Assembly: GCA_019347645.1 (NCBI GenBank)
Contig: JAHWKZ010000003.1
Span: 1 to 38,951, forward strand
Direction of reading: 5' to 3'
Length of the DNA stretch: 38,951 nt
DNA from: Gemmatimonadota bacterium
GTDB taxonomy: Bacteria > Gemmatimonadota > Gemmatimonadetes > JACCXV01 > JAHWKZ01
Position numbers and translations under genes: made by a program. Shown here in pieces: positions 5,412 to 15,079 of this stretch. The notes beneath the pieces are model-generated. The model ran no database searches and was not told the DNA's origin. It saw only the letters and a list, made by a program, of their open reading frames with translations. Every line of letters starts with the position of its first letter. The first letter of the stretch is position 1.

Positions 5412-6863
5412 TCACCCTTTGACGACCCCGAGCGGAACGAGCCGGGCGACGCGACGACTGATCCCCGCCTCCTCCATCACGGCCACGACGTCGGCGACGT
5501 CCTTGTAGGCGTGGGACATCTCCTCGGCCACGGTTCGCATGCCCGTGGCACGGACGATCACGCCCTGCTCCTCCATCTCCTTCAGGAGGTCGCGTCCTCT
5601 GGACTCCTTCTTCGCCCGGGTGCGGCTCATCCGCCGCCCGGCGCCGTGACAGGTGGATCCGAACGTCTCCTTCATCGCCGCGGACTGCCCGGCGCAGACG
5701 TAGGAGTAGTTTCCCATGCTGCCGGGGACGAGGACCGGCTGTCCGGTCTCTCGATACGCGGCGGGGACCTCTTCATGGCCCGGCGGGAATGCGCGGGTGG
5801 CCCCCTTGCGATGGACGCAAACGCGCCTGCGCTCGCCGTCGATCTCGTGGTCCTCCACCTTCGCGATGTTGTGGCAGACGTCGTAGACGAGGTCCATGCG
5901 GAGATCGGCGGGGCCCGAGCCCAGGACCTTCTGGAACGTCTCCCGGGTTTTGTGGAGCATCACCTGGCGGTTGCACCACGCGTAGTTCGCCGCGCACCGC
6001 ATCGCGCCCAGATAGGCCTCGCCCTCCTCGGAGTCGAGCGGCGCGGCCGCCAGCTGCACGTCCGGCAGGTCGTAGCCGTAGACCGGGAGCTTCGACTTGA
6101 TGCGCTTGATGAAGTCGTCGCAGATCTGGTAGCCGAAGCCGCGCGATCCGGAGTGGATCATCACGACGACCTGGCCCTCGAACAGCCCGAACGCGCTCCC
6201 CAGCGACTCGTCGTAGATCTTCGAGACCTTCTGCACCTCGAGGAAGTGGTTGCCGCTCCCGAGGGTCCCCACCTGGGTGAGGCCGCGCTCCTTGGCACGA
6301 TCGGAGACGGCGTCGGGGTCGGCTCCCTCCATGCGTCCGCCCTCCTCGGTATGATCGAGGTCGGCCGGGGAACCGAAGCCCTCCTCGATCGCCCATCGCG
6401 CGCCTTGCCTCAGGAGCTTCCGCTCGTCGGCCGTCGAGAGCCTCTCGATCGCCCCCTCGCTGCCGACGCCGCTGGGGACGGCGTCGAAGAGCGCATCCAT
6501 GAGCGTTCGCAACCGCGGGGTCCCCAGCGAGTCGGCCTCCACCTCGCTGCGGGCGAGACGGACCCCGCAGTTGATGTCGTAGCCGACGCCGCCGGGGGAG
6601 ATCGCACCCGAGTCCGCCTCGGTGGCGGCGACGCCGCCGATGGGGAAGCCGTACCCCCAGTGGATGTCGGGCATCGCCAGCGAGGCGCCGAGGATCCCGG
6701 GCAGGCAGGCGACGTTCTTGACCTGCACGAGGCTCTCGTCCGCCCGGATGTCGTCGATCATCTCGTCGGAGGCGTACACCCGCCCGGGGACCCGCATCGG
6801 CCCCTCCTTCGGGATCTCCCAGACGTATGGAGCGATCTTCTCGATTCTGACGTCGGCTCCCAT
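5412..6863 (-). CDS. rtcB: RtcB RNA ligase (long, archaeal/eukaryal-like type)
   Basis: MPDIHWGYGFPIGG, GYDINCG, GSGNHF, HSGSRG, HNIAK, HRKGAT, HGAGR, YKD. Confidence 0.97.
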   Translation of the reverse strand: MGADVRIEKIAPYVWEIPKEGPMRVPGRVYASDEMIDDIRADESLVQVKNVACLPGILGASLAMPDIHWGYGFPIGGVAATEADSGAISPGGVGYDINCGVRLARSEVEADSLGTPRLRTLMDALFDAVPSGVGSEGAIERLSTADERKLLRQGARWAIEEGFGSPADLDHTEEGGRMEGADPDAVSDRAKERGLTQVGTLGSGNHFLEVQKVSKIYDESLGSAFGLFEGQVVVMIHSGSRGFGYQICDDFIKRIKSKLPVYGYDLPDVQLAAAPLDSEEGEAYLGAMRCAANYAWCNRQVMLHKTRETFQKVLGSGPADLRMDLVYDVCHNIAKVEDHEIDGERRRVCVHRKGATRAFPPGHEEVPAAYRETGQPVLVPGSMGNYSYVCAGQSAAMKETFGSTCHGAGRRMSRTRAKKESRGRDLLKEMEEQGVIVRATGMRTVAEEMSHAYKDVADVVAVMEEAGISRRVARLVPLGVVKG

Positions 6864-6872
6864 CCTCCCCCC

Positions 6873-7298
6873 TCAGACGTCGAAGATGACGCGGGCGCGC
6901 CACTCCCCGTCGGCTTCCGCGAACCGCAGCTGGTGCCAGGTCACCGCCTTCAGCTCGCTCGCCCGAGCGACCCGCGCCCGGGGCGGCCGGGCGCCCCGGA
7001 CCACCGCCCGCAACGTCCCCGGCCCGGAGGCCTCCACGTCGGCCTCGACCGCGACGAACCCGTCCTCTTCGAGGAGCCGGTAGATCGACTCGCACCACGC
7101 CTTCAGGAGCTCGGGATATCCCTCCTCCCGGAGCTCGACGCTCCGCTCCTCGCGCGGCTCCACGTCCGGGTCCTCGCCGAAGAGGACCCGGACGAGGCCC
7201 CGCAGGGCGGCTTCCAGGACGGCGGCCGGTGAAGAGCCCTCGAGTTCGAGCCCGAGGTCGGCGGTGTGTTCGATCTCGGCGAAGCGGCCGCGCTCCAC
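6873..7298 (-). CDS. Archease (RtcB cofactor)
   Basis: EHTAD near N-terminus, KAVTWH, C-terminal IFDV; directly upstream of rtcB. Confidence 0.93.
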   Translation of the reverse strand: MERGRFAEIEHTADLGLELEGSSPAAVLEAALRGLVRVLFGEDPDVEPREERSVELREEGYPELLKAWCESIYRLLEEDGFVAVEADVEASGPGTLRAVVRGARPPRARVARASELKAVTWHQLRFAEADGEWRARVIFDV

Positions 7299-7382: not shown

Positions 7383-8438
7383 TCAGGCCACCGCGAAGCC
7401 CCGTTCCGCCTCGATCGGGAGGATCTCCCGGAGCTCTTCGATCCGGTTCAGGATCCGCTCCGCCTCCGAGGACGCGCCCAGCTCACGGTAGCACATCCGC
7501 GCGTGACGGTAGGTGTCGATGGCGCGAGGGGTGTCGTTCTGCGCGCAGTAGAGGCGCGCGATCGTCACCCACGTCTCCGCCTCGACGAGCGGGGCCTGTC
7601 GGTCGGAGCTGAGGTCGAGCGCCTGGCGAAGGAAGCGCGTCGCCCCGACGAAGTCGTTCAACTCGAGGCTCACCTCGCCCATCAGGCAGAGCGCGCTGGC
7701 GGCCGCCGGTTTGTAGTCGCGCTCCCGCGCGAGATCGAGCGCGGAGCGCGCCAGCGACAGCGCCAGGTGCGGCCGATCCCGGTCCAGCTCCAGCCGCGCC
7801 CGATTGATCGAGACGGTCGTCCCCAGGAACCGGTCCCCCTGGCGCTCGGCCTCCCGCAGGGCGTCCTGGAACGCGGACTCGGCTTCGATGAACCGCCGCT
7901 CGGCGGCGAGGACCAGGCCCAGGTTGTTCATGGTGCGGGCCGGCTCGAACAGCTGGGGGTCCAGGCCGACCTCCGCGAGCTTGCCGGCGACGTACTCCGC
8001 GGCCTCCCGCTCCCCCCGAGCGGCCAGCATGGCCCCTTCGTTGTTCTCGATCTGGGCCAGCAGACGCCGGTCGTCCGCCTCCCGGGCGTGTCGACGCGCC
8101 TCGCGGTACAGCTGGCGCGCGAAGAACCAGTCGCCGCGCTCGAACTCGACCGCGGCGAGGCCGTTGAACGCCTTGCCGATCAGGCTGTTGTCCCGGATCG
8201 CTTCGGCGGCCGCCAGGCTGGCCTCGTACGCCTCCTGCGCGCCGTCCCAGTCCGACATCGCCAGTCGGCAGATCCCCGCGCCCCGGAGCGCGTCGGCACG
8301 GACCGCTCCGGCCCGCGGGTCTCTCTCCGCCTGTCCGGCGATCTCCACGTAGGCCTTCAGCGCCTCTTCGAAACGGCCCTCCTGGCGCGCTGCGTCCGCG
8401 CGGGCCACGGAGAGCCGATCTGACCCGAGGCCCGCCAT
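7383..8438 (-). CDS. Stand-alone cytoplasmic TPR protein (module B); paralog of 11596-12642
   Basis: Helical repeats with FNGLA, ENNEGA, MNNLG, INRAR; start overlaps lipoprotein stop (TGATG). Confidence 0.85.
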   Translation of the reverse strand: MAGLGSDRLSVARADAARQEGRFEEALKAYVEIAGQAERDPRAGAVRADALRGAGICRLAMSDWDGAQEAYEASLAAAEAIRDNSLIGKAFNGLAAVEFERGDWFFARQLYREARRHAREADDRRLLAQIENNEGAMLAARGEREAAEYVAGKLAEVGLDPQLFEPARTMNNLGLVLAAERRFIEAESAFQDALREAERQGDRFLGTTVSINRARLELDRDRPHLALSLARSALDLARERDYKPAAASALCLMGEVSLELNDFVGATRFLRQALDLSSDRQAPLVEAETWVTIARLYCAQNDTPRAIDTYRHARMCYRELGASSEAERILNRIEELREILPIEAERGFAVA

Positions 8439-8965
8439 CAGTCGAGGCAGATGGCGTAGAGGGAGAAGTGCTCGATCGGGACGACGACCGCGCCCAGGCT
8501 TTCGTCGTACGCGCCGCCGATCACCGTCCAGTCGTTCCCCTCGTCGGAGGCCCCGGCGATCGCGAGGCGGGCCGGGTCCACGCCCAACGCCTCGGGATCC
8601 ACCTGGATCGTCAGCGTGGCGGCCGTGTCGAACGTCAGGCCGCTCGGGCCGAACTTGTACCTGAACTGGTCGGTCTCACGTCCCTTCATGGAGATGGAGA
8701 CCTCCTGGACAAGCGCCCCGCTGGGGACATCGAGGCGACCGCCGTCGACGGAGATCGAGCCCCCGTGCGGGCCGATCTTCTGGACCACCGTCTGGGAGGC
8801 GATCTTCAGCCCGCCGGGGACGACGAGCAGGTCGACGCCGTTGACGGTGACCGTCCGGGGTGCCGGCTGCGGGACCCCGGTCGGACCGGGATCGGACTCG
8901 CAGGCGGTGAAGACGAGCGCGAGGGCGAGCGCCGTGGCGCCGTGGATGATCGAACGTAGGGTCAT
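8438..8965 (-). CDS. ZU5-like lipoprotein 3, C-terminus HFSLYAICLD
   Basis: ATG 8965 after AGGAG; lipobox VFTA-C; IGPHGG..LDVPSGAL..FGPSGLTF..ATLTI..HFS pattern. Confidence 0.75.
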   Translation of the reverse strand: MTLRSIIHGATALALALVFTACESDPGPTGVPQPAPRTVTVNGVDLLVVPGGLKIASQTVVQKIGPHGGSISVDGGRLDVPSGALVQEVSISMKGRETDQFRYKFGPSGLTFDTAATLTIQVDPEALGVDPARLAIAGASDEGNDWTVIGGAYDESLGAVVVPIEHFSLYAICLD

Positions 8966-8987: not shown

Positions 8988-9539
8988 CTACCGGACGCAG
9001 AGGGCGTAGCGCGAGAAGTGCTGGATCTCGACGGACACCGAGTTGGCGGCCGCATCGTATGCGCCGCCGACCACCTGCCAGTCGTCCACGTCGTCGTGGG
9101 CGCCGGCGATCGCGAGCTGCGACGGGTCGATCCCGTCGAGATTCGCTTTGTCGGCCGAGATCGTGAGCACCGCCGCCGGGTCGAACTGCAACCCGTTGGG
9201 GCCGAACTTGAACGACACGTAGCCGTCGTTTTCGGCCTTCATGGTGATCGTCACGTCGTCCGGGATCGATCCCGGGACCACCTCCAGAGAGGCGTCCTTG
9301 TTGCTGATCGTGGCGCCGTCCTGCGCGTTCACCCGCTGCGCCGTCGCAGCATTGTTCGCGACGAACAGCCCGCGCTGGCTGGGGACCACGGTGACGAGTC
9401 GCACGCCGTTGACCTGTACGGTCGGAGAGGCGTCCGGTGGATTGGGAGTGACCGGCACATCGGTCGTCTCGCACGCGGCGAGACCGAGGATGGCCAGCCC
9501 GAGGACCGCCCGAGTGAAGGGCTTGAGGAAGTGGATCAT
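8988..9539 (-). CDS. ZU5-like lipoprotein 2, C-terminus HFSRYALCVR
   Basis: GGAGG RBS; lipobox LAA-C; FGPNGLQFDPAAVLTI..HFS. Confidence 0.8.
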   Translation of the reverse strand: MIHFLKPFTRAVLGLAILGLAACETTDVPVTPNPPDASPTVQVNGVRLVTVVPSQRGLFVANNAATAQRVNAQDGATISNKDASLEVVPGSIPDDVTITMKAENDGYVSFKFGPNGLQFDPAAVLTISADKANLDGIDPSQLAIAGAHDDVDDWQVVGGAYDAAANSVSVEIQHFSRYALCVR

Positions 9540-9540
9540 T

Positions 9541-9705
9541 GGCGACCTCCTCAGGTTTGGAACGATGTCCGCTCCGGCGAATTCCGGAGTCGGGACGATC
9601 GGTCGGGCGGCCCGGCCGTCCGTCCGGAAGACTTCTCCGGCGAGGACCCGTCGGCTTTGCGCCCCCCGCTCTCACGGGGTTTGCCCTTTTCCGAGGACGT
9701 CGTCG
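9541..9705. repeat. 165-bp direct repeat (leader plus riboswitch), copy at 13272-13436
   Basis: By-eye alignment: no indels, 9 substitutions. Confidence 0.95.
9603..9695 (-). ncRNA. c-di-GMP-I (GEMM-I) riboswitch, copy B
   Basis: GGGCAAACCCCGT-GAGA-GCGGGGGGCGCAAAGCCGACGGGTCCT...GGACGGCCGGGCCGCC: GCAAA motifs, GNRA-capped P2, P3, short P1 TCGG/CCGA. Confidence 0.9.
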
Positions 9706-9719
9706 CGCCCTATTAGCAA

Positions 9720-9735
9720 TGCAATCCACGTACCA
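9720..9735 (-). promoter_or_regulatory. Sigma-54 -24/-12 promoter, module B
   Basis: TGGTACG-TGGA-TTGCA versus consensus TGGCACG-N4-TTGCW; predicted +1 near 9709, just ahead of the riboswitch. Confidence 0.85.
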
Positions 9736-9921: not shown

Positions 9922-11553
9922 TCAGGAGCGGGAGAGCTCCTCGTCGATCAAATCGGCGGAAACCTCGGGGAGCGAAGCGAACGTCTGGGCGAGCTCCTCC
10001 GGGCGCATGGCGCGCCCGGTGGCCGTCTTCTTCCCCACCCGATCCTTCCCGAACGACTCCCGGCGGGCGATCTCGACGAAGACGCCGGTGATCTCGGGAT
10101 CGGAGAGCGTCCCCCCGCTCATCTCGAGGTAGGTGAGGGTCTGCTCCCGGCTCCAGGGGTCGCGATAGGGACGGGCCGTACTCAGGGCGTCGAAGACGTC
10201 CGCGATCAGCAGGATCCGGGCCCCGAGGGGGATCCTCTCGCCCGCGAGGCCGTCGGGATAGCCCGTGCCGTCGTAGCGCTCGTGGTGGCCCCGGATCATC
10301 GACTCCACGTCCCACGGGAGTTCGAATCGCTTCAGGTGCTCGACCGCCAGCTCGGGGTGACGCTGGATCTCGGCCATCTCCCGCTCCGTCAACCGCCCTT
10401 CCTTGTTGAGGATCGCGGAATCGATCTCCAGCTTTCCGATGTCGTGGAGGTACCCGGCGACCAGGATCCCCTTCATCTGGTCGGGGCCGAACCCGAGGTC
10501 GCAGGCGATCGCCACCGCGTACTCGGCGACCCGGGCGCTGTGACCGTACAGGTAGGCCCCGCCGCGGGACTCCACCTGCCGCCCGAGCCGCTCGACGAGC
10601 TGCACGACCAGCGTCTCGAGGTCCCCGATCTTCTCCTCGAGGTCGGCCAGGTCGTGGGCCGCCTCCAGGAGCCGGAACAGCTTGAGGCTCCGGGCGAAGC
10701 TCTCCAGCGCGCTCCGATGCCTTCCTTTGGAGAGGTGGAGGTGGCCGAGCTCGCGCAGCGCCTCGGCCTCGGTGAGCGGAGCGTCCAGCTTCCTCCCCTG
10801 CCGGGCCGCCCGCTCGAAGTGCGCCCGGGCGAGTGCGATCTTGCCGCTCTTGCGAAAGATCTCGCCGTAGTGGCGGTACGCCTCCGCGATCCCCAGGGCG
10901 TCGTTCACCACCGTCAGCCGCTCGACCGCCTCGTCACAAGCGTCCCTCGCCTCGGACAGGCGCTCGGCTTCGATCTCGACCTCGGCGGCGTTCAGCGCGA
11001 TCAGTCCCACCAGCGCGTCATCGCCCGCCTCGATGGCGAGCCGGCGCGCCATGCGGTAGGAGCGGCTCGCCCCGCTCCAGCGCTTCTGGTCGGCGAGCAG
11101 GATCCCGAGGTTGTTCAGGGCCTGGGCCTCGCCGGCGAGGTCGCCGGCGCGATGGTGCGCGCGGCGCCCCTTCCAGTAGTACTCGAGGGCCCTCTCGAAG
11201 CGGCCGCGAACGTTGGCGACCGCTCCCAGGTTCAGCAGGGCGGCTCCCATCGCGGACGCGGAGTCGAGGGCGCGGGCGACTTCGAGCGCGTCCAGGAAGC
11301 GGCGTTCGGCGTCCCGGAGGTTGCCGCGCTCGAACTCCACGATCCCCAGCTCCGACAGGAACTCGGTGGTGGCGGACGCGGCTCCGTCAAGGACCGCCTG
11401 ACGCAGCCCGAGCACGGCACAGGCCTCGGCCTCGGACCAGCGGGCCTCGCGGCGGGCGGTGGAGGCCTTCTGCCGCAGGGCGGAAAGGGTCGGTCGGGGC
11501 GCTCCCCAGTGGTACGTCCGGAACGGCATCACCTTACCGGACGCAGAGCGCAT
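9922..11553 (-). CDS. TPR-repeat + HD-GYP cyclic-di-nucleotide phosphodiesterase
   Basis: N-terminal TPRs (LNLGA, LNNLG, LNAAE); GHSARV, LHDIGK, HHERYDGTGYP, ADVFDAL, RPYR all intact; start could be 11553, 11532 or 11529. Confidence 0.92.
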   Translation of the reverse strand: MRSASGKVMPFRTYHWGAPRPTLSALRQKASTARREARWSEAEACAVLGLRQAVLDGAASATTEFLSELGIVEFERGNLRDAERRFLDALEVARALDSASAMGAALLNLGAVANVRGRFERALEYYWKGRRAHHRAGDLAGEAQALNNLGILLADQKRWSGASRSYRMARRLAIEAGDDALVGLIALNAAEVEIEAERLSEARDACDEAVERLTVVNDALGIAEAYRHYGEIFRKSGKIALARAHFERAARQGRKLDAPLTEAEALRELGHLHLSKGRHRSALESFARSLKLFRLLEAAHDLADLEEKIGDLETLVVQLVERLGRQVESRGGAYLYGHSARVAEYAVAIACDLGFGPDQMKGILVAGYLHDIGKLEIDSAILNKEGRLTEREMAEIQRHPELAVEHLKRFELPWDVESMIRGHHERYDGTGYPDGLAGERIPLGARILLIADVFDALSTARPYRDPWSREQTLTYLEMSGGTLSDPEITGVFVEIARRESFGKDRVGKKTATGRAMRPEELAQTFASLPEVSADLIDEELSRS

Positions 11554-11596
11554 AGCGGATCGCCCGCGGCATCGTGTTCGGCCACAGAATCGACAT
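11534..11596 (-). CDS. Unannotated 20-aa micro-ORF MSILWPNTMPRAIRYALCVR
   Basis: GGAGG 7 nt upstream; ATG overlaps TPR stop (TGATG); last 7 aa identical to lipoprotein C-termini with synonymous codon differences. Confidence 0.65.
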   Translation of the reverse strand: MSILWPNTMPRAIRYALCVR

Positions 11597-12642
11597 CACG
11601 GCACCTCCATCGTGGGGGCTTCGAGCGCGGCCAGGCGCCTCTCGAGCCGCTCGGCTTCCGCCGTCGACCCGAGGGAGAGGTAGCATCGTCGAGATTGCCG
11701 CAATGCCCGTGCCGCTTCGTCGAACCGCTCCCGAGCGAGCTCGAGCTCCGCGAGCTCCGTCCAGGTCTCGGCCTCGGCCAGTGGCACGCGTCCGTCGGCG
11801 CTCCGTTCCAGCGCCTCTCGGAGGCAGGCGCGAGCCTCGTCCCAACGGCCTCCGGCGCGGGCGACCGCGCCCTGGAGGCAGACGGCGTCGGCGGCCAGCG
11901 GACCGTTCCCCAGCCGGGCGGCGATCTCGGCCGCCGTCGCCGCGACCGCGTGCGCCCGGATCGGCTCGTCGATGACGAGCGCGAGCCGGCCGCGGTTGAT
12001 CATCACCGTGGCGGCGAGCGTCAAGTCTCCGGTGCGCTTGCATTCCTCCAGCGCCCGGCCGTAGAACGCGTCCGCCTCGGCGACGCGGCCGTCCTCCATC
12101 AGGATCATTCCGAGGTTGTTCATGGCGCGCGCCCCGCACGGATGCCTCTCGAGCTCCTCGAAGTGTCGAAGGGCCCGGCGGAAGTGCTCCTCGGACCGCG
12201 CACGTTCGCCTCGGGCGGCCCACAGGGCGCCTTCGTTGTTCTCGATCTCCATCAGCAGGGAGAGATCCTCGACGCCTCCGGCGCTTTCGCGCGCGGCGCG
12301 GTAGCGGCGCTCGGCTTCCTCCCAGTTGCCGCGCTCGAACTCGAGCGCTCCCCGGGCGTTGTCGGCCAGCGCCAGCCGTCCGGCGTCTCCCATGCGCTCG
12401 GCGATCAGCCGACTCTCGGCCAGGTCGCGGAGCGCCTCCTGCCACTCGCCGAGGCGGATCCGGACGATCGCCGCGCCCCGAAGCGCGTCGGCTTCGGCGG
12501 CGGCCCCTTCCGGATGGAACCGGGCCGTCTCGACCGCGTCCTGGTAGGCGGTCAGGGCCTCTTCCCATCGCTCGCTCCGAGCGGCCGCCTCGGCGCGGGC
12601 GATCGCCGCGCGTGGCGTTTTGCTATCGTGTTCCTCGATCAT
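11596..12642 (-). CDS. Stand-alone cytoplasmic TPR protein (module A)
   Basis: DNARG, ENNEGA, MNNLG, INRGR repeats; collinear with 7383-8438. Confidence 0.87.
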   Translation of the reverse strand: MIEEHDSKTPRAAIARAEAAARSERWEEALTAYQDAVETARFHPEGAAAEADALRGAAIVRIRLGEWQEALRDLAESRLIAERMGDAGRLALADNARGALEFERGNWEEAERRYRAARESAGGVEDLSLLMEIENNEGALWAARGERARSEEHFRRALRHFEELERHPCGARAMNNLGMILMEDGRVAEADAFYGRALEECKRTGDLTLAATVMINRGRLALVIDEPIRAHAVAATAAEIAARLGNGPLAADAVCLQGAVARAGGRWDEARACLREALERSADGRVPLAEAETWTELAELELARERFDEAARALRQSRRCYLSLGSTAEAERLERRLAALEAPTMEVP

Positions 12643-12714: not shown

Positions 12715-13269
12715 CTACCGGACACAGAGGGCGTAGCGCGAGAAGTGGAGGATCGGAACGGTAACGCTGTTGGTGAGCGGATCGTAGATCCCGCCGATCA
12801 CCTGCCAGTCGTCCACATCGTCCGAGGCCCCCGCGATCGCCAGCCTCGTCGGATCGATGTCGTCGAGGTCCGCCTTGTCGGCCGAGATGATCAGGGTCGC
12901 CGCCGGGTCGAACACCAGGCCGTTCGGGCCGAACTCGAAGCCCAGGATGTCGTCCTCGTCCTCCACCTCCATCCTGATAGTGGTGGCCTCGGGAATGGAG
13001 TTGGGCTGGACGATGAGCTGAGCGTCCTCGGCCGTCAGGGTCGCGCCTTCGGATACGTCCACCAGATCGACCTCCACCTCGTCATCGGCGAGGAACAGAC
13101 CGCGGGCCTCCGGCCGGACGGTGACGAGCTGCACGCCGTTGAAGGTCACGGTCGGTGGATCCGCCTCCGGCGCCGCGGGGGTGAAGCCCTGATCCTCGCA
13201 TGCGACGAGTCCGAGCACGGCCAGGGCGAGGATCGCCCGGCGGAAGGGCTTGATGAGGGAGCGGGTCAT
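12715..13269 (-). CDS. ZU5-like lipoprotein 1, C-terminus HFSRYALCVR
   Basis: GGAGG RBS; lipobox LVA-C; FGPNGLVFDPAATLII..HFS; close paralog of 8988-9539. Confidence 0.8.
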   Translation of the reverse strand: MTRSLIKPFRRAILALAVLGLVACEDQGFTPAAPEADPPTVTFNGVQLVTVRPEARGLFLADDEVEVDLVDVSEGATLTAEDAQLIVQPNSIPEATTIRMEVEDEDDILGFEFGPNGLVFDPAATLIISADKADLDDIDPTRLAIAGASDDVDDWQVIGGIYDPLTNSVTVPILHFSRYALCVR

Positions 13270-13271
13270 TT

Positions 13272-13436
13272 GGCGACCTCCTCAGGGTTGGAACGATGTC
13301 CGCCCCGGCGAGTTCCGGAGTCGGGACGATCGCTCGGGCGGCCCGGCCGTCCGTCCGGATGGCTTCTCCGGCGAGGACCCGTCGGCTTTGCGCCCCCCGC
13401 TCTCACGGGGTTTGCCCTTGACCGAGGATGTCGTCG
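13272..13436. repeat. 165-bp direct repeat, copy at 9541-9705
   Basis: By-eye alignment 156/165 identical. Confidence 0.95.
13333..13426 (-). ncRNA. c-di-GMP-I (GEMM-I) riboswitch, copy A
   Basis: Same aptamer core as copy B; P1 CTCGG/CCGAG. Confidence 0.9.
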
Positions 13437-13464
13437 GCCCCATGACGGGGCCGCCCTACTCTTC

Positions 13465-13480
13465 AGCAACCTTCGTACCA
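13465..13480 (-). promoter_or_regulatory. Sigma-54 -24/-12 promoter, module A
   Basis: TGGTACG-AAGG-TTGCT; predicted +1 near 13454. Confidence 0.85.
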
Positions 13481-13569: not shown

Positions 13570-13688
13570 TGTAACGCATCGTTCGACCCGGATCCCCGGG
13601 GGACCCGGCTAACCCGTTGATCGCCAGCAGGATGAGAGGAAAGCGGTGCGCCCGGAACGTTTCGTCGCAGTCGGAACGAAACGTGGAT
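13570..13688. promoter_or_regulatory. Three ACG-N3-CGT boxes, putative activator binding sites
   Basis: TGTAACG-CAT-CGTTCGA (13570), CGGAACG-TTT-CGTCGCA (13653), CGGAACG-AAA-CGTGGAT (13672); first box 90 bp from the -24 element. Confidence 0.6.
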
Positions 13689-15079
13689 CAGGAGGGGGTT
13701 TCGGCGGGCTCCAGGTCGTACTTGTCGATCTTCCGCAGCAGTCGGGGACGGCTGATCTCGAGCTCCCGCGCGGTCTGGGACTTGTTCCATTCGTTGCGCT
13801 CGAGCGCGTGGGCGATGACCTGGCGCTCGAACTCGTCGAACGGGAGCCCCTCCGGCGGGAGCTCGATGACCAGTCGGTCGACCTCGTCCCCCGCCGTGCG
13901 CCGGCTCCGGTCGGACCCGGCCACGTTGGGAAGCGTGATCCGGGGGCCCTCCCCGAGCAGCACCGCGCGCTCGATGGTGTTCTTGAGCTCGCGAATGTTT
14001 CCGGGCCATGAATAGGCGTGGAGGAACTCGCGGGACTCCTTCGATAGAGGCCGGTCGGGTTTGCCGTACTGTTCCGCGTAGCGCGCGGCGAAGTGCTCGG
14101 CGAGCAGCTCCACGTCGTCGCCTCGCTCCCTGAGGGGGGGCAGCTCCACCGCGACGACGTTGAGGCGGTAATAGAGGTCGCTACGGAAGAGCCCCTGTCC
14201 GATCGCCTGCTCCAGGTCGCGGCTCGTCGCCGCGATGATCCGCATGCTGACCGATACCTCTCGGGTGCCCCCGAGCCGACGGAAGCGCTTCTCCTCGATC
14301 GCCCGCAACAGCTTTCCCTGGAGGTTCAGCGACATGTCGCCGAGCTCGTCGAGGAACAACGTGCCGCCGTCGGCGAGCTGGAGGAGACCCGGCTTGGACG
14401 ACTTGGCGTCGGTGAAGGCGCCTTTCTCGTAGCCGAAGAGCTCCGCCTCGAGGAGGTTCTCGGGGATGGCGGTGCAGTTCACCTCGATGAACGGCTGGTC
14501 GTGCTGCGCCGACTGGTAGTGGATCGCCCGGGCTACGAGCTCCTTGCCGGTCCCGGTCTCGCCGCGGATGAGTACGGTCCTGGCACCCGACTCGATCACC
14601 TTGCGTACCACGCCGAGAACGCCCCGCATCGCCTCGCAGCGGGCGATCATGTCGGGGAATCCGAGCAGGGTGATCGGGCCCTCCCTGGACGTACCGTCCC
14701 CGTTGCCCCAGAGCTCGAGCTTCGTCTCGACCACCGCCTCCCCGATCCGTTCCCGGTCGCGTGGCAAAATGCAGTACTCGTCGGCGCCGGCGGTGAGAGC
14801 GTGGACGGCCGAATCGGTGGACGGATCGCGGGTCACGGCCACCACCCGCGGCCGCTCCGACAGCGCGTTCAGCTCGGCCAGGATCCGGTCGACCTCCTCC
14901 CCCACGTAGTCGAGGTCGAGGACTACGAAGCGCGGCAGCGGCGAGAGCTTGGGATCGCCGACGGAAGCCTCGCGGTGGACGAACACGCACTCGATCGATT
15001 CCTCGGACGGGACCAGGTCCACGTATTCGGCCGCGGGGCCGAAGACGGCCACGTGGAGAGGGATCGGCGATCGCGCCAT
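13688..15079 (-). CDS. Sigma-54-dependent transcriptional activator (degenerate REC-like + AAA+ + Fis HTH)
   Basis: GETGTGKE, ELFGYEKGAFTDA, FLDE, DLYYRL, WPGNIREL, NKSQTARELEISRPRL. Confidence 0.95.
   Translation of the reverse strand: MARSPIPLHVAVFGPAAEYVDLVPSEESIECVFVHREASVGDPKLSPLPRFVVLDLDYVGEEVDRILAELNALSERPRVVAVTRDPSTDSAVHALTAGADEYCILPRDRERIGEAVVETKLELWGNGDGTSREGPITLLGFPDMIARCEAMRGVLGVVRKVIESGARTVLIRGETGTGKELVARAIHYQSAQHDQPFIEVNCTAIPENLLEAELFGYEKGAFTDAKSSKPGLLQLADGGTLFLDELGDMSLNLQGKLLRAIEEKRFRRLGGTREVSVSMRIIAATSRDLEQAIGQGLFRSDLYYRLNVVAVELPPLRERGDDVELLAEHFAARYAEQYGKPDRPLSKESREFLHAYSWPGNIRELKNTIERAVLLGEGPRITLPNVAGSDRSRRTAGDEVDRLVIELPPEGLPFDEFERQVIAHALERNEWNKSQTARELEISRPRLLRKIDKYDLEPAETPS

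Follow-up and report, generated by a model that had tools for sequence, protein, structure and literature searches.

A divergent Gemmatimonadota lipoprotein with a ZU5/GAIN-like fold, its TPR neighbour and the c-di-GMP riboswitch operon that encodes them

When the gene for an exported lipoprotein overlaps the gene for a tetratricopeptide repeat (TPR) protein that has no signal peptide, and when the lipoprotein ends in a short tail whose charge is opposite to that of its paralogs, is this tail a signal that the TPR protein reads? The question is raised by a 38,951-nucleotide stretch of DNA from a Gemmatimonadota bacterium (contig JAHWKZ010000003.1 of assembly GCA_019347645.1; hereafter the window), in which the lipoprotein gene that we call LipoC is followed by a TPR gene, TPR-C, and in which two LipoC paralogs, LipoA and LipoB, stand at the head of two operons (Table 1). 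A first-pass annotation of the sequence had likened this arrangement to ligand-receptor pairs that diversified as pherotypes after duplication.

The fold of LipoC, the motif at its C-terminal turn, the anatomy of the two operons and their riboswitches, the linkage of lipoprotein and TPR genes throughout the phylum and the orthology of the LipoC/TPR-C pair are established by the observations described below. On their basis we propose, with about as much belief as doubt, that LipoC is a self-cleaving lipoprotein whose tail is read by a partner TPR protein, within a cyclic di-GMP (c-di-GMP) module of the Gemmatimonadota. In the open-access papers and bioRxiv preprints that were searched, the combination of riboswitch, sigma54 promoter, self-cleaving lipoprotein and TPR-HD-GYP protein is described nowhere as one unit. 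The notion of a ligand and its receptor is plausible and is strengthened by the new evidence; the notion of pherotypes is not supported.

The LipoC domain and its tail

The LipoC reading frame translates without stops into 175 residues (MTLRS...IEHFSLYAICLD, ending in HFSLYAICLD). Its ATG at position 8965 is preceded by an AGGAGA-type ribosome site, the start position is common to seven orthologs, and the E-value of 1.6e-60 against the family profile is not one that chance would give. LipoC is 44% identical to LipoB and 43% identical to LipoA, which share 59% identity with each other and end in the same ten residues, HFSRYALCVR. Counted from the letters, the side-chain charge of the LipoC tail SLYAICLD is -1 and that of SRYALCVR is +2; one of the two positive charges in the latter is a terminal Arg peculiar to that clade, most relatives ending in Glu or Asp. 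By what we take to be the lipobox pattern (LVFTAC22 in LipoC, LGLAAC in LipoB and LGLVAC in LipoA), all three are predicted lipoproteins and signal peptidase II substrates, and the lipobox Cys is kept in at least 90% of 71 aligned family sequences.

On the minus strand the junction of LipoC and TPR-C reads ...CTCGACTGATGGCG, in which the LipoC TGA (8440-8438) and the TPR-C ATG share the single base 8438 (TGATG). The database gene call (P0096, 341 residues) places the start of TPR-C ten codons later, which would remove the overlap; five TPR-C orthologs keep the N-terminal residues of the longer start and hence support it. The first-pass annotation had described a divergent third lipoprotein with an opposite-charge tail and a stop codon overlapping the start of the TPR gene, and these facts are correct, because the coordinates, the tails and the overlap all check out and the longer N-terminus is conserved.

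The AlphaFold2 model of LipoC, built on an alignment of 71 homologs, is all-beta, with a predicted local distance difference test (pLDDT) of 87.6. A Foldseek search with this model returned 14 PDB matches at E <= 0.001, those listed being ankyrin or ZO-1 ZU5 domains; ZU5 domains of ankyrin (3f59, E 1.3e-5), ZO-1, UNC5b and NLRP1 rank at the top, and the GAIN domains of adhesion G-protein-coupled receptors (GPCRs) come next. Seven columns are invariant among the 71 sequences, and H166, F167 and S168 make up three of them: the HFS triplet is present in 71/71, and likewise in 154 of the 159 intact-tail lipoprotein genes that we collected from other loci. In the model it forms the turn between the last two strands (159-166 and 169-174). 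The same triplet is the self-cleavage site of PIDD and Nup98. Furthermore, a recent preprint describes bacterial GAIN-like domains, named MAIN, that cleave between the F and the S of HFS and whose products stay associated (Brogan and Rudner, 10.64898/2026.05.12.724683), and the ZU5, GPS and Nup98 autopeptidases have been treated as one superfamily, noted in bacterial surface proteins (Zhang et al. 2012, PMC3482391). PF00791 (ZU5) is found on 50% of the 164 proteins that make up a related cluster of Gemmatimonadota in the ESM Atlas. An NCBIfam search of the three window lipoproteins gave nothing usable, and neither did a search of the lipoprotein sequence profile against the PDB, which returned no ZU5 domain. 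Judged from the model and the motif, the only domain of LipoC is probably a ZU5/GAIN-like ("MAIN"-type) autoproteolytic beta-sandwich, one that would cleave itself.

Only eight residues follow HF|S in LipoC, and they are modelled at high confidence as strand 169-174. Y170 is conserved in more than 90% of the 71 sequences, and hydrophobic residues alternate along the tail. These features fit an explanation that requires no signal at all, in which the tail is simply the last beta-strand of the domain, cleaved or not, the TPR proteins share a c-di-GMP-regulated pathway with the lipoproteins without touching the tail, and SLYAICLD and SRYALCVR differ by fold-compatible drift between old paralogs. 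The continued association of MAIN cleavage products (10.64898/2026.05.12.724683) fits it as well, as do the different compartments of lipoprotein and TPR protein and the small number of independent events behind the covariation described below. We regard this explanation as unlikely, although it has to be taken seriously, and part of our reluctance stems from the occurrence of the tail without the domain.

Tails of this kind are retained on domain-less lipoproteins in three arrays, those of genomes G323 and G413 and of a JGI contig (L040 7915-8250; L073 4684-5031; L057 6861-7175). These proteins, of 104-115 residues, lie inside five-gene lipoprotein arrays and consist of a signal peptide, a lipobox and a low-complexity S/T/P-rich linker, with no ZU5-like domain. 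Their middle parts differ and the tail is kept, ending in ...RDCYALCIE or ...RDDCYSLCIE, with Cys replacing the residue after the usual cleavage Ser. Likewise, the window contains a 20-codon open reading frame (ORF), MSILWPNTMPRAIRYALCVR, that has neither signal peptide nor HFS and ends in the same heptapeptide, RYALCVR, as LipoA and LipoB. Over these seven tail codons it differs from LipoB by two synonymous and zero non-synonymous changes, and it ends 4 nucleotides before an alternative ATG of the TPR-HD-GYP gene at 11529. This ORF is either what remains of a lipoprotein gene that was deleted or a tail peptide without a leader; the former may apply, because a relative (L005) carries a complete lipoprotein gene at that position. 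Whichever its origin, the tail appears to behave as an independent module, which is not what one would expect of a simple structural strand.

Linkage and covariation of lipoproteins and TPR proteins

A profile search detected the lipoprotein family in 218 of the 401 Gemmatimonadota genomes covered; this tally takes in G182, G057 and G097, which are flagged as unpublished and on which no other result rests. Loci were fetched from the best-scoring matches and scanned with profiles built in this analysis, and the linkage counts are therefore not those of a random sample. The next same-strand gene after the 159 intact-tail lipoprotein genes outside the window encodes a TPR or TPR-HD-GYP protein in 119 cases and another lipoprotein in 26, with nothing recognised in the remaining 14, some of which sit at contig ends. 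A locus search with 27 closer sequences returned 7 loci. A TPR-HD-GYP gene is present in 14 of 16 extended loci, where one to five lipoproteins and an optional TPR protein of ~350 residues precede a TPR-HD-GYP protein of ~540 residues. The coupling of lipoprotein to TPR gene to which the first-pass annotation had drawn attention is thus real and phylum-wide: the genes lie on the same strand, are tightly linked and often overlap, and this degree of association throughout the phylum also argues against TPR proteins that never touch the tail.

The tail is among the best conserved parts of the family, with Arg after the Ser in 98 of 159 proteins and with RYAVAW (33 of 159) and RYAVAY (22 of 159) as the commonest endings. 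Across 118 adjacent lipoprotein-TPR pairs, the TPR column most informative about the charge at the tail position after the Ser is that of TPR-C Glu100 (Glu103 of TPR-A, motif EFERG). Where the tail residue is R (69 pairs), the column holds E in 66 and D, V and Q in one each; where it is D or E (17 pairs), the column holds R in 7, K in 1 and a neutral residue in 9, and is never acidic; where it is H (5 pairs), the column holds Q in all 5. By the register of the repeat (F4, L7, A8, A20, Y24, A27), Glu100 occupies position 13 of repeat three, where helix 84-101 ends; we take position 13 to be concave and ligand-facing. This charge-complementary pattern is suggestive, though not proof, of contact between ligand and receptor, and complementarity at a position that normally faces the ligand is difficult to reconcile with a purely structural tail. 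The terminal tail residue, which differs between clades (E, D or R), gives a mixed picture: for R versus E/D there is one complementary column (TPR-A Glu50 versus Arg) and there are about as many columns flipped in the opposite sense, all on one clade. A complex prediction of TPR-C with LipoC residues 146-175 (score 0.02, mark 0.32), made without controls, is uninformative either way.

The composition of the tails invites a further explanation. Outer-membrane proteins bear an aromatic C-terminal beta-signal, and the tails of this family may resemble it: most tails of the phylum, the two commonest included, end in an aromatic residue, and their hydrophobic residues alternate. The tail could therefore be a C-terminal sorting or quality-control signal that is read in the envelope, with the cytoplasmic TPR proteins answering to something else. 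However, the tails of the window's own clade end in E, D or R, not in an aromatic residue, and a sorting signal would explain neither the charge pattern with the TPR column nor the invariant HFS; we consider it very unlikely.

The reading that we prefer, that of a tail released by self-cleavage and recognised by a TPR protein, can be laid out as a series of steps. A sigma54-type promoter would drive a common transcript of LipoB, LipoC and TPR-C that passes through a c-di-GMP-I riboswitch, with a TPR-HD-GYP protein added by the sister operon. After export and lipidation, the domain of LipoC would cleave itself between F167 and S168, and the 8-residue tail would stay in place as the last beta-strand until some trigger (force, unfolding or turnover) freed it. 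The concave groove of the partner TPR proteins would then bind the tail, either after uptake or on the unexported precursor; in the HD-GYP fusions such binding would tune the breakdown of c-di-GMP, and the riboswitch would feed the c-di-GMP level back onto expression. Because a hydrophobic residue sits where the family has Arg, the LipoC tail probably provides a distinct ligand, or a competing one, and not a new pherotype. One can imagine a bolder form of this scheme, which strikes us as doubtful: a peptide circuit, of a kind so far undescribed for Gram-negative bacteria, in which the GAIN/ZU5 domain of a lipoprotein excises a free, "Stachel-like" peptide of 7-8 residues, cytoplasmic TPR proteins read this peptide through contacts matched in charge and gate the HD-GYP domain, and the c-di-GMP riboswitch closes the loop. 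LipoC and TPR-C would then act as a competitor built into the circuit or as its second channel, orthogonal in part to the first, and further ligand would come from the 20-codon ORF and the tail-only lipoproteins.

A number of observations weigh against a tail that is cleaved off and read in this way. Since the lipoprotein is exported and TPR-A, TPR-C and TPR-HD-GYP have no signal peptide, a route across the inner membrane is needed, and there is no peptide permease among the 30 window proteins that were scanned, the rest of the genome not having been searched. We infer this route, as we infer the cleavage, the binding of the tail to the TPR protein and the effect on HD-GYP. LipoA, LipoB and LipoC match no Pfam family at E <= 1, ZU5 (PF00791) included, and the His of the motif is absent in 4 of the 159 copies (AFS, NFS, GFS and GFT). 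The loss of R after the Ser maps to essentially one clade of 38 TPR-HD-GYP proteins, and within that clade a basic TPR residue arose in two sub-clades, both of them acidic-tailed; a test of tail charge against the TPR column on independent pairs has 3 supported pairs only (median p 0.5) and is underpowered. Because the loss belongs to one clade and the independent supported pairs number just three, the covariation remains suggestive rather than proven. Moreover, TPR-C and its five orthologs keep Glu100 although the corresponding tails carry L or I, so that the one site that covaries gives no sign of a TPR-C re-tuned to LipoC; by the Glu100 rule alone, TPR-C is predicted to suit the tail of LipoC no better than LipoB's R-tail. 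The V/I-type tails in G323 and G413 also arise without a change of TPR clade. Hence the covariation of tail and groove that the first-pass annotation named as a check is present in part, with E or D matched to R in 67 of 69 pairs and R or K matched to D or E in 8 of 17, and is limited by the few independent events and by the Glu100 that TPR-C retains.

The window's copy of TPR-C has to be added to these points. Its residues 149-167 (window 7938-7994, minus strand) read YVAGKLAEVGLDPQLFEP in place of the near-invariant ECFRRAL..F..L..HPC, and the pLDDT of the model dips there. This segment could reflect strain variation, a frameshift that was compensated or a mistake of the assembly, and the window's copy may be damaged or mis-assembled, because the segment coincides with clustered insertions and deletions relative to two other contigs, one of 8476 nucleotides from another run and one of 462 nucleotides from the probable source run. 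A hidden frameshift was considered for the same segment and rejected, the conserved motif being encoded in no other frame.

Age of the LipoC/TPR-C pair and likeness to known systems

It is informative to examine the pherotype idea in light of the phylogeny of the two proteins. In that idea, the three lipoproteins and three TPR proteins are recent duplicate ligand-receptor pairs, with LipoC/TPR-C as the newest specificity, and the differing tail charges and the translational coupling of LipoC and TPR-C are in keeping with it, as is the fact that LipoC-type and TPR-C-type proteins each form a clade of their own. In a lipoprotein tree built without the tail columns, the LipoC clade comprises seven proteins (support 98) with tails of the form S[LI][YF][GA][LI]C[LV]D and adjoins proteins whose Ser is followed by Q; a separate clade, most of whose tails end in R, contains LipoA and LipoB. 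The TPR proteins with which TPR-C groups (support 97) come from two same-family genomes and are encoded behind SQYALC[MI]E lipoproteins; those with which TPR-A groups are encoded behind SRYALC[IV]E lipoproteins. LipoC, only 43-44% identical to its paralogs in the window, nonetheless has orthologs of 53-68% identity elsewhere, all from Logan/ENA contigs; no LipoC ortholog exceeds 47% identity in the 401 genomes of the class or 41% in JGI metagenome contigs. For TPR-C, likewise, identity to TPR-A is 40%, against 66-74% to its five orthologs. For three couples of LipoC and TPR-C orthologs, the longest contigs are equal in size (P0030/P0098, 2586; P0048/P0099, 2083; P0044/P0100, 4997, these two with three contigs each), which suggests that the two types share contigs, their adjacency being read from the equal contig sizes alone; the identity of orthologs that seem to lie together in this way is 55-73%.

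Because both proteins have close orthologs, seemingly on shared contigs, LipoC/TPR-C is, by sequence comparison, an old and conserved second lipoprotein/TPR pair and not the outcome of a recent split into pherotypes. Close relatives do not show the rapidly diversifying peptide that the pherotype idea implies: the seven LipoC-type orthologs share one tail pattern, R after the Ser predominates in the family at large, and the tails are nearly fixed within each lineage. LipoA and LipoB precede different TPR proteins and yet share an identical tail, and the ratio of lipoproteins to TPR proteins is not 1:1 and varies between genomes, from 5:2 in G323 and G413, where five lipoproteins lie between two TPR genes, to 3:2 in G019. 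The retention of Glu100 in TPR-C points the same way. We thus find it highly improbable that these are newly split pherotypes. What stands of the first-pass proposal is its ligand-receptor part, through the linkage and the charge-complementary association; what falls is the recent diversification, given the old paralogs in the trees and the nearly fixed tails.

For an old pair of this type, the nearest known relatives of the lipoprotein are the MAIN domains and the wider ZU5/GAIN superfamily (PIDD, the FIIND of NLRP1/CARD8, Nup98 and the GAIN domains of adhesion GPCRs), with which LipoA, LipoB and LipoC share the beta-sandwich and an H-F-S turn before the last strand. As in MAIN proteins, these predicted lipoproteins are exported and tethered to the envelope. 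MAIN proteins, however, average 158 kDa, consist of a signal peptide, ectodomains, the MAIN domain and, at the C-terminal end, an anchor to the wall, and come mostly from Bacillota; according to the authors of the preprint, their C-terminal fragment has no known role in signalling (10.64898/2026.05.12.724683). The proteins of the window family, in contrast, have ~180 residues, an N-terminal lipid anchor and 7-8 residues after the cleavage site, and their genes are wired to TPR or TPR-HD-GYP genes. With its 175 residues, N-terminal lipobox and eight residues after HF|S, LipoC does not have the architecture of a MAIN surface protein.

In the RRNPP systems of Firmicutes (Rap-Phr, NprR-NprX and PlcR-PapR), the gene of a cytoplasmic TPR sensor sits beside that of a precursor that is exported and carries the signal in its C-terminal residues. 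The model of TPR-C (pLDDT 90.9, 17 helices; Pfam match TPR_12, 1.8e-27) resembles peptide-bound RapF (4i9c) and RapJ (4gyo) over its full length, with template modelling (TM) scores of 0.65-0.67 at 10-11% identity; no RRNPP protein is found among 60 of the 64 PDB sequence hits of TPR-C at 1e-5. Several features set the window's system apart. Its precursor would be a folded, self-cleaving lipoprotein and not a short pro-peptide; where RRNPP proteins have a helix-turn-helix (HTH) or phosphatase/anti-activator output, TPR-A and TPR-C are composed of repeats only and the third protein carries HD-GYP; and the phylum is Gram-negative, with no permease in the limited scan given above.

The tethered agonist ("Stachel") of adhesion GPCRs offers another parallel, in that GAIN-type cleavage leaves a short hydrophobic strand that is a potential ligand once released, and the S-R-Y-A-V-A-W tail presumably resembles the Stachel consensus. 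Unlike a Stachel, the peptide of the window's lipoproteins is not tethered to a receptor, and the TPR protein that is its candidate receptor is soluble, separate and located in a different compartment. TPR proteins that bind peptides of the extreme C-terminus form the fourth comparison (Hop, a binder of EEVD; PEX5, which binds PTS1; and kinesin light chain and LGN, which bind cargo peptides): the last two are the best PDB sequence hits of TPR-C, and LGN-peptide complexes head the Foldseek list for its model. Neither a fusion to HD-GYP nor a lipoprotein partner is found in any of the solved relatives.

Were the preferred reading of a cleaved and recognised tail true, it would provide a signalling role for bacterial GAIN-like (MAIN) self-cleaving domains, for which the one paper that we found on them states that none is known. 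It would also make a TPR sensor that binds peptide the link from events in the envelope to the turnover of c-di-GMP, by a logic akin to that of the RRNPP systems of Firmicutes and of the adhesion GPCRs of animals. We know of no such peptide-TPR logic in Gram-negative bacteria. The charge swap (Arg in the tail with Glu in the TPR protein, Asp or Glu in the tail with Arg or Lys) would amount to a simple and falsifiable rule of specificity, and Gemmatimonadota, an abundant and poorly studied soil phylum, would gain a phylum-wide regulatory unit that is experimentally tractable.

Operon anatomy and variation between loci

All parts of the module lie on the minus strand, in two units. The first runs from a sigma54-type element through a c-di-GMP-I riboswitch to LipoA, TPR-A, the 20-codon ORF and TPR-HD-GYP, and the second from a sigma54-type element and riboswitch to LipoB, LipoC and TPR-C; neither a promoter nor a riboswitch belongs to LipoC alone. 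The genes that flank the module are housekeeping genes.

Table 1. Features of the lipoprotein/TPR module in the window
Feature	Coordinates	Strand	Description
LipoC (feature under study)	8438..8965	-	Predicted lipoprotein, 175 aa; signal peptide, lipobox FTAC (Cys22), ZU5/GAIN-like beta-sandwich, H166-F167-S168, tail SLYAICLD
TPR-C	7383..8438	-	351 aa, all-TPR, no signal peptide; start overlaps LipoC stop by one base
LipoB	8988..9539	-	LipoC paralog, tail SRYALCVR; gene 1 of the LipoC operon
c-di-GMP-I riboswitch aptamer	9603..9695	-	5' leader of LipoB-LipoC-TPR-C; Rfam RF01051, 52.9 bits
sigma54-type -24/-12 element	9720..9735	-	TGGTACGTGGATTGCA; upstream of the riboswitch of unit 2
TPR-HD-GYP	9922..11553	-	Predicted c-di-GMP phosphodiesterase with N-terminal TPR sensor; true start possibly ATG 11529
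20-codon ORF	11534..11596	-	ATG overlaps TPR-A stop (TGATG)
TPR-A	11596..12642	-	348 aa, all-TPR, TPR-C paralog, after LipoA; orthologs at 72-78% identity
LipoA	12715..13269	-	LipoC paralog, tail SRYALCVR; gene 1 of the sister operon
second c-di-GMP-I riboswitch aptamer	13334..13426	-	LipoA leader; RF01051, 47.9 bits
second sigma54-type -24/-12 element	13465..13480	-	TGGTACGAAGGTTGCT; upstream of the LipoA riboswitch
sigma54-dependent activator	13688..15079	-	Receiver-like N-terminus, AAA+, Fis HTH; Sigma54_activat 9.6e-67, HTH_8 7.8e-13; directly upstream of the LipoA operon

Both aptamers exceed the gathering score of 35 for RF01051 over model positions 1-87, as expected of c-di-GMP-I (GEMM-I) operons, and they are the only c-di-GMP-I riboswitches found in this 55%-complete genome. 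The TPR-HD-GYP protein matches HD_5 (PF13487, 1.3e-34) and TPR_12 (2.8e-23), and its HDIGK and HHERYDGTGYP motifs are intact in the translation, in line with known HD-GYP phosphodiesterases; its enzyme activity is predicted. The sigma54-type promoter pattern has 2 matches in the window and 0 in 100 shuffles, and the activator gene is, by its adjacency alone, a candidate activator of both promoters. The two leaders (9540-9710 and 13270-13441), which comprise riboswitch and expression platform, are 93% identical over 172 nucleotides, against 68% for the coding regions and ~50% for the DNA further upstream; this difference suggests gene conversion or a strong constraint on the whole leader. No intrinsic terminator was found between the genes on the minus strand; terminator-like sites occur on the plus strand only, at 2 against 3.0 expected.

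Outside the window, a riboswitch (RF01051 or its GGC variant, RF03167) lies ahead of the operon in nine distinct loci, all from the clade of the window, and none was detected in the remaining loci scanned, which were 14 of the 20 in a first set and 10 of the 14 in a second. A TGG-N9/10-TGC element lies 40-66 nucleotides upstream of the aptamer in 10 of 11 distinct riboswitch operons, the window's two included; L009 and L043 have identical upstream sequence and were counted once. One sub-clade (L007, L009, L010 and L057) has a c-di-GMP-I-GGC leader (RF03167, 65-74 bits) before a stand-alone TPR gene that precedes the lipoprotein array, an order unlike that of the window.

Lipoprotein copies that are presumably non-cleaving or decayed exist in the arrays: some members lack the His (NFSRYALCIE and AFSDYVIAW) and one copy lacks the tail (among L057 7208-7858, L038 1474-2130 and L007 7283-7876). 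There is also a distant second type of lipoprotein, without the catalytic His, that ends in GFSRYALAY or GFTRYAIAY (L069 5245-5865; L072 2286-2960); each is followed by a TPR protein of ~320 residues (L069 4246-5229; L072 3018-3986), in genomes that also have the main module. In the window itself, genes for archease and the RNA ligase RtcB (5412-7298, minus strand) follow TPR-C on the same strand after a gap of 84 nucleotides.

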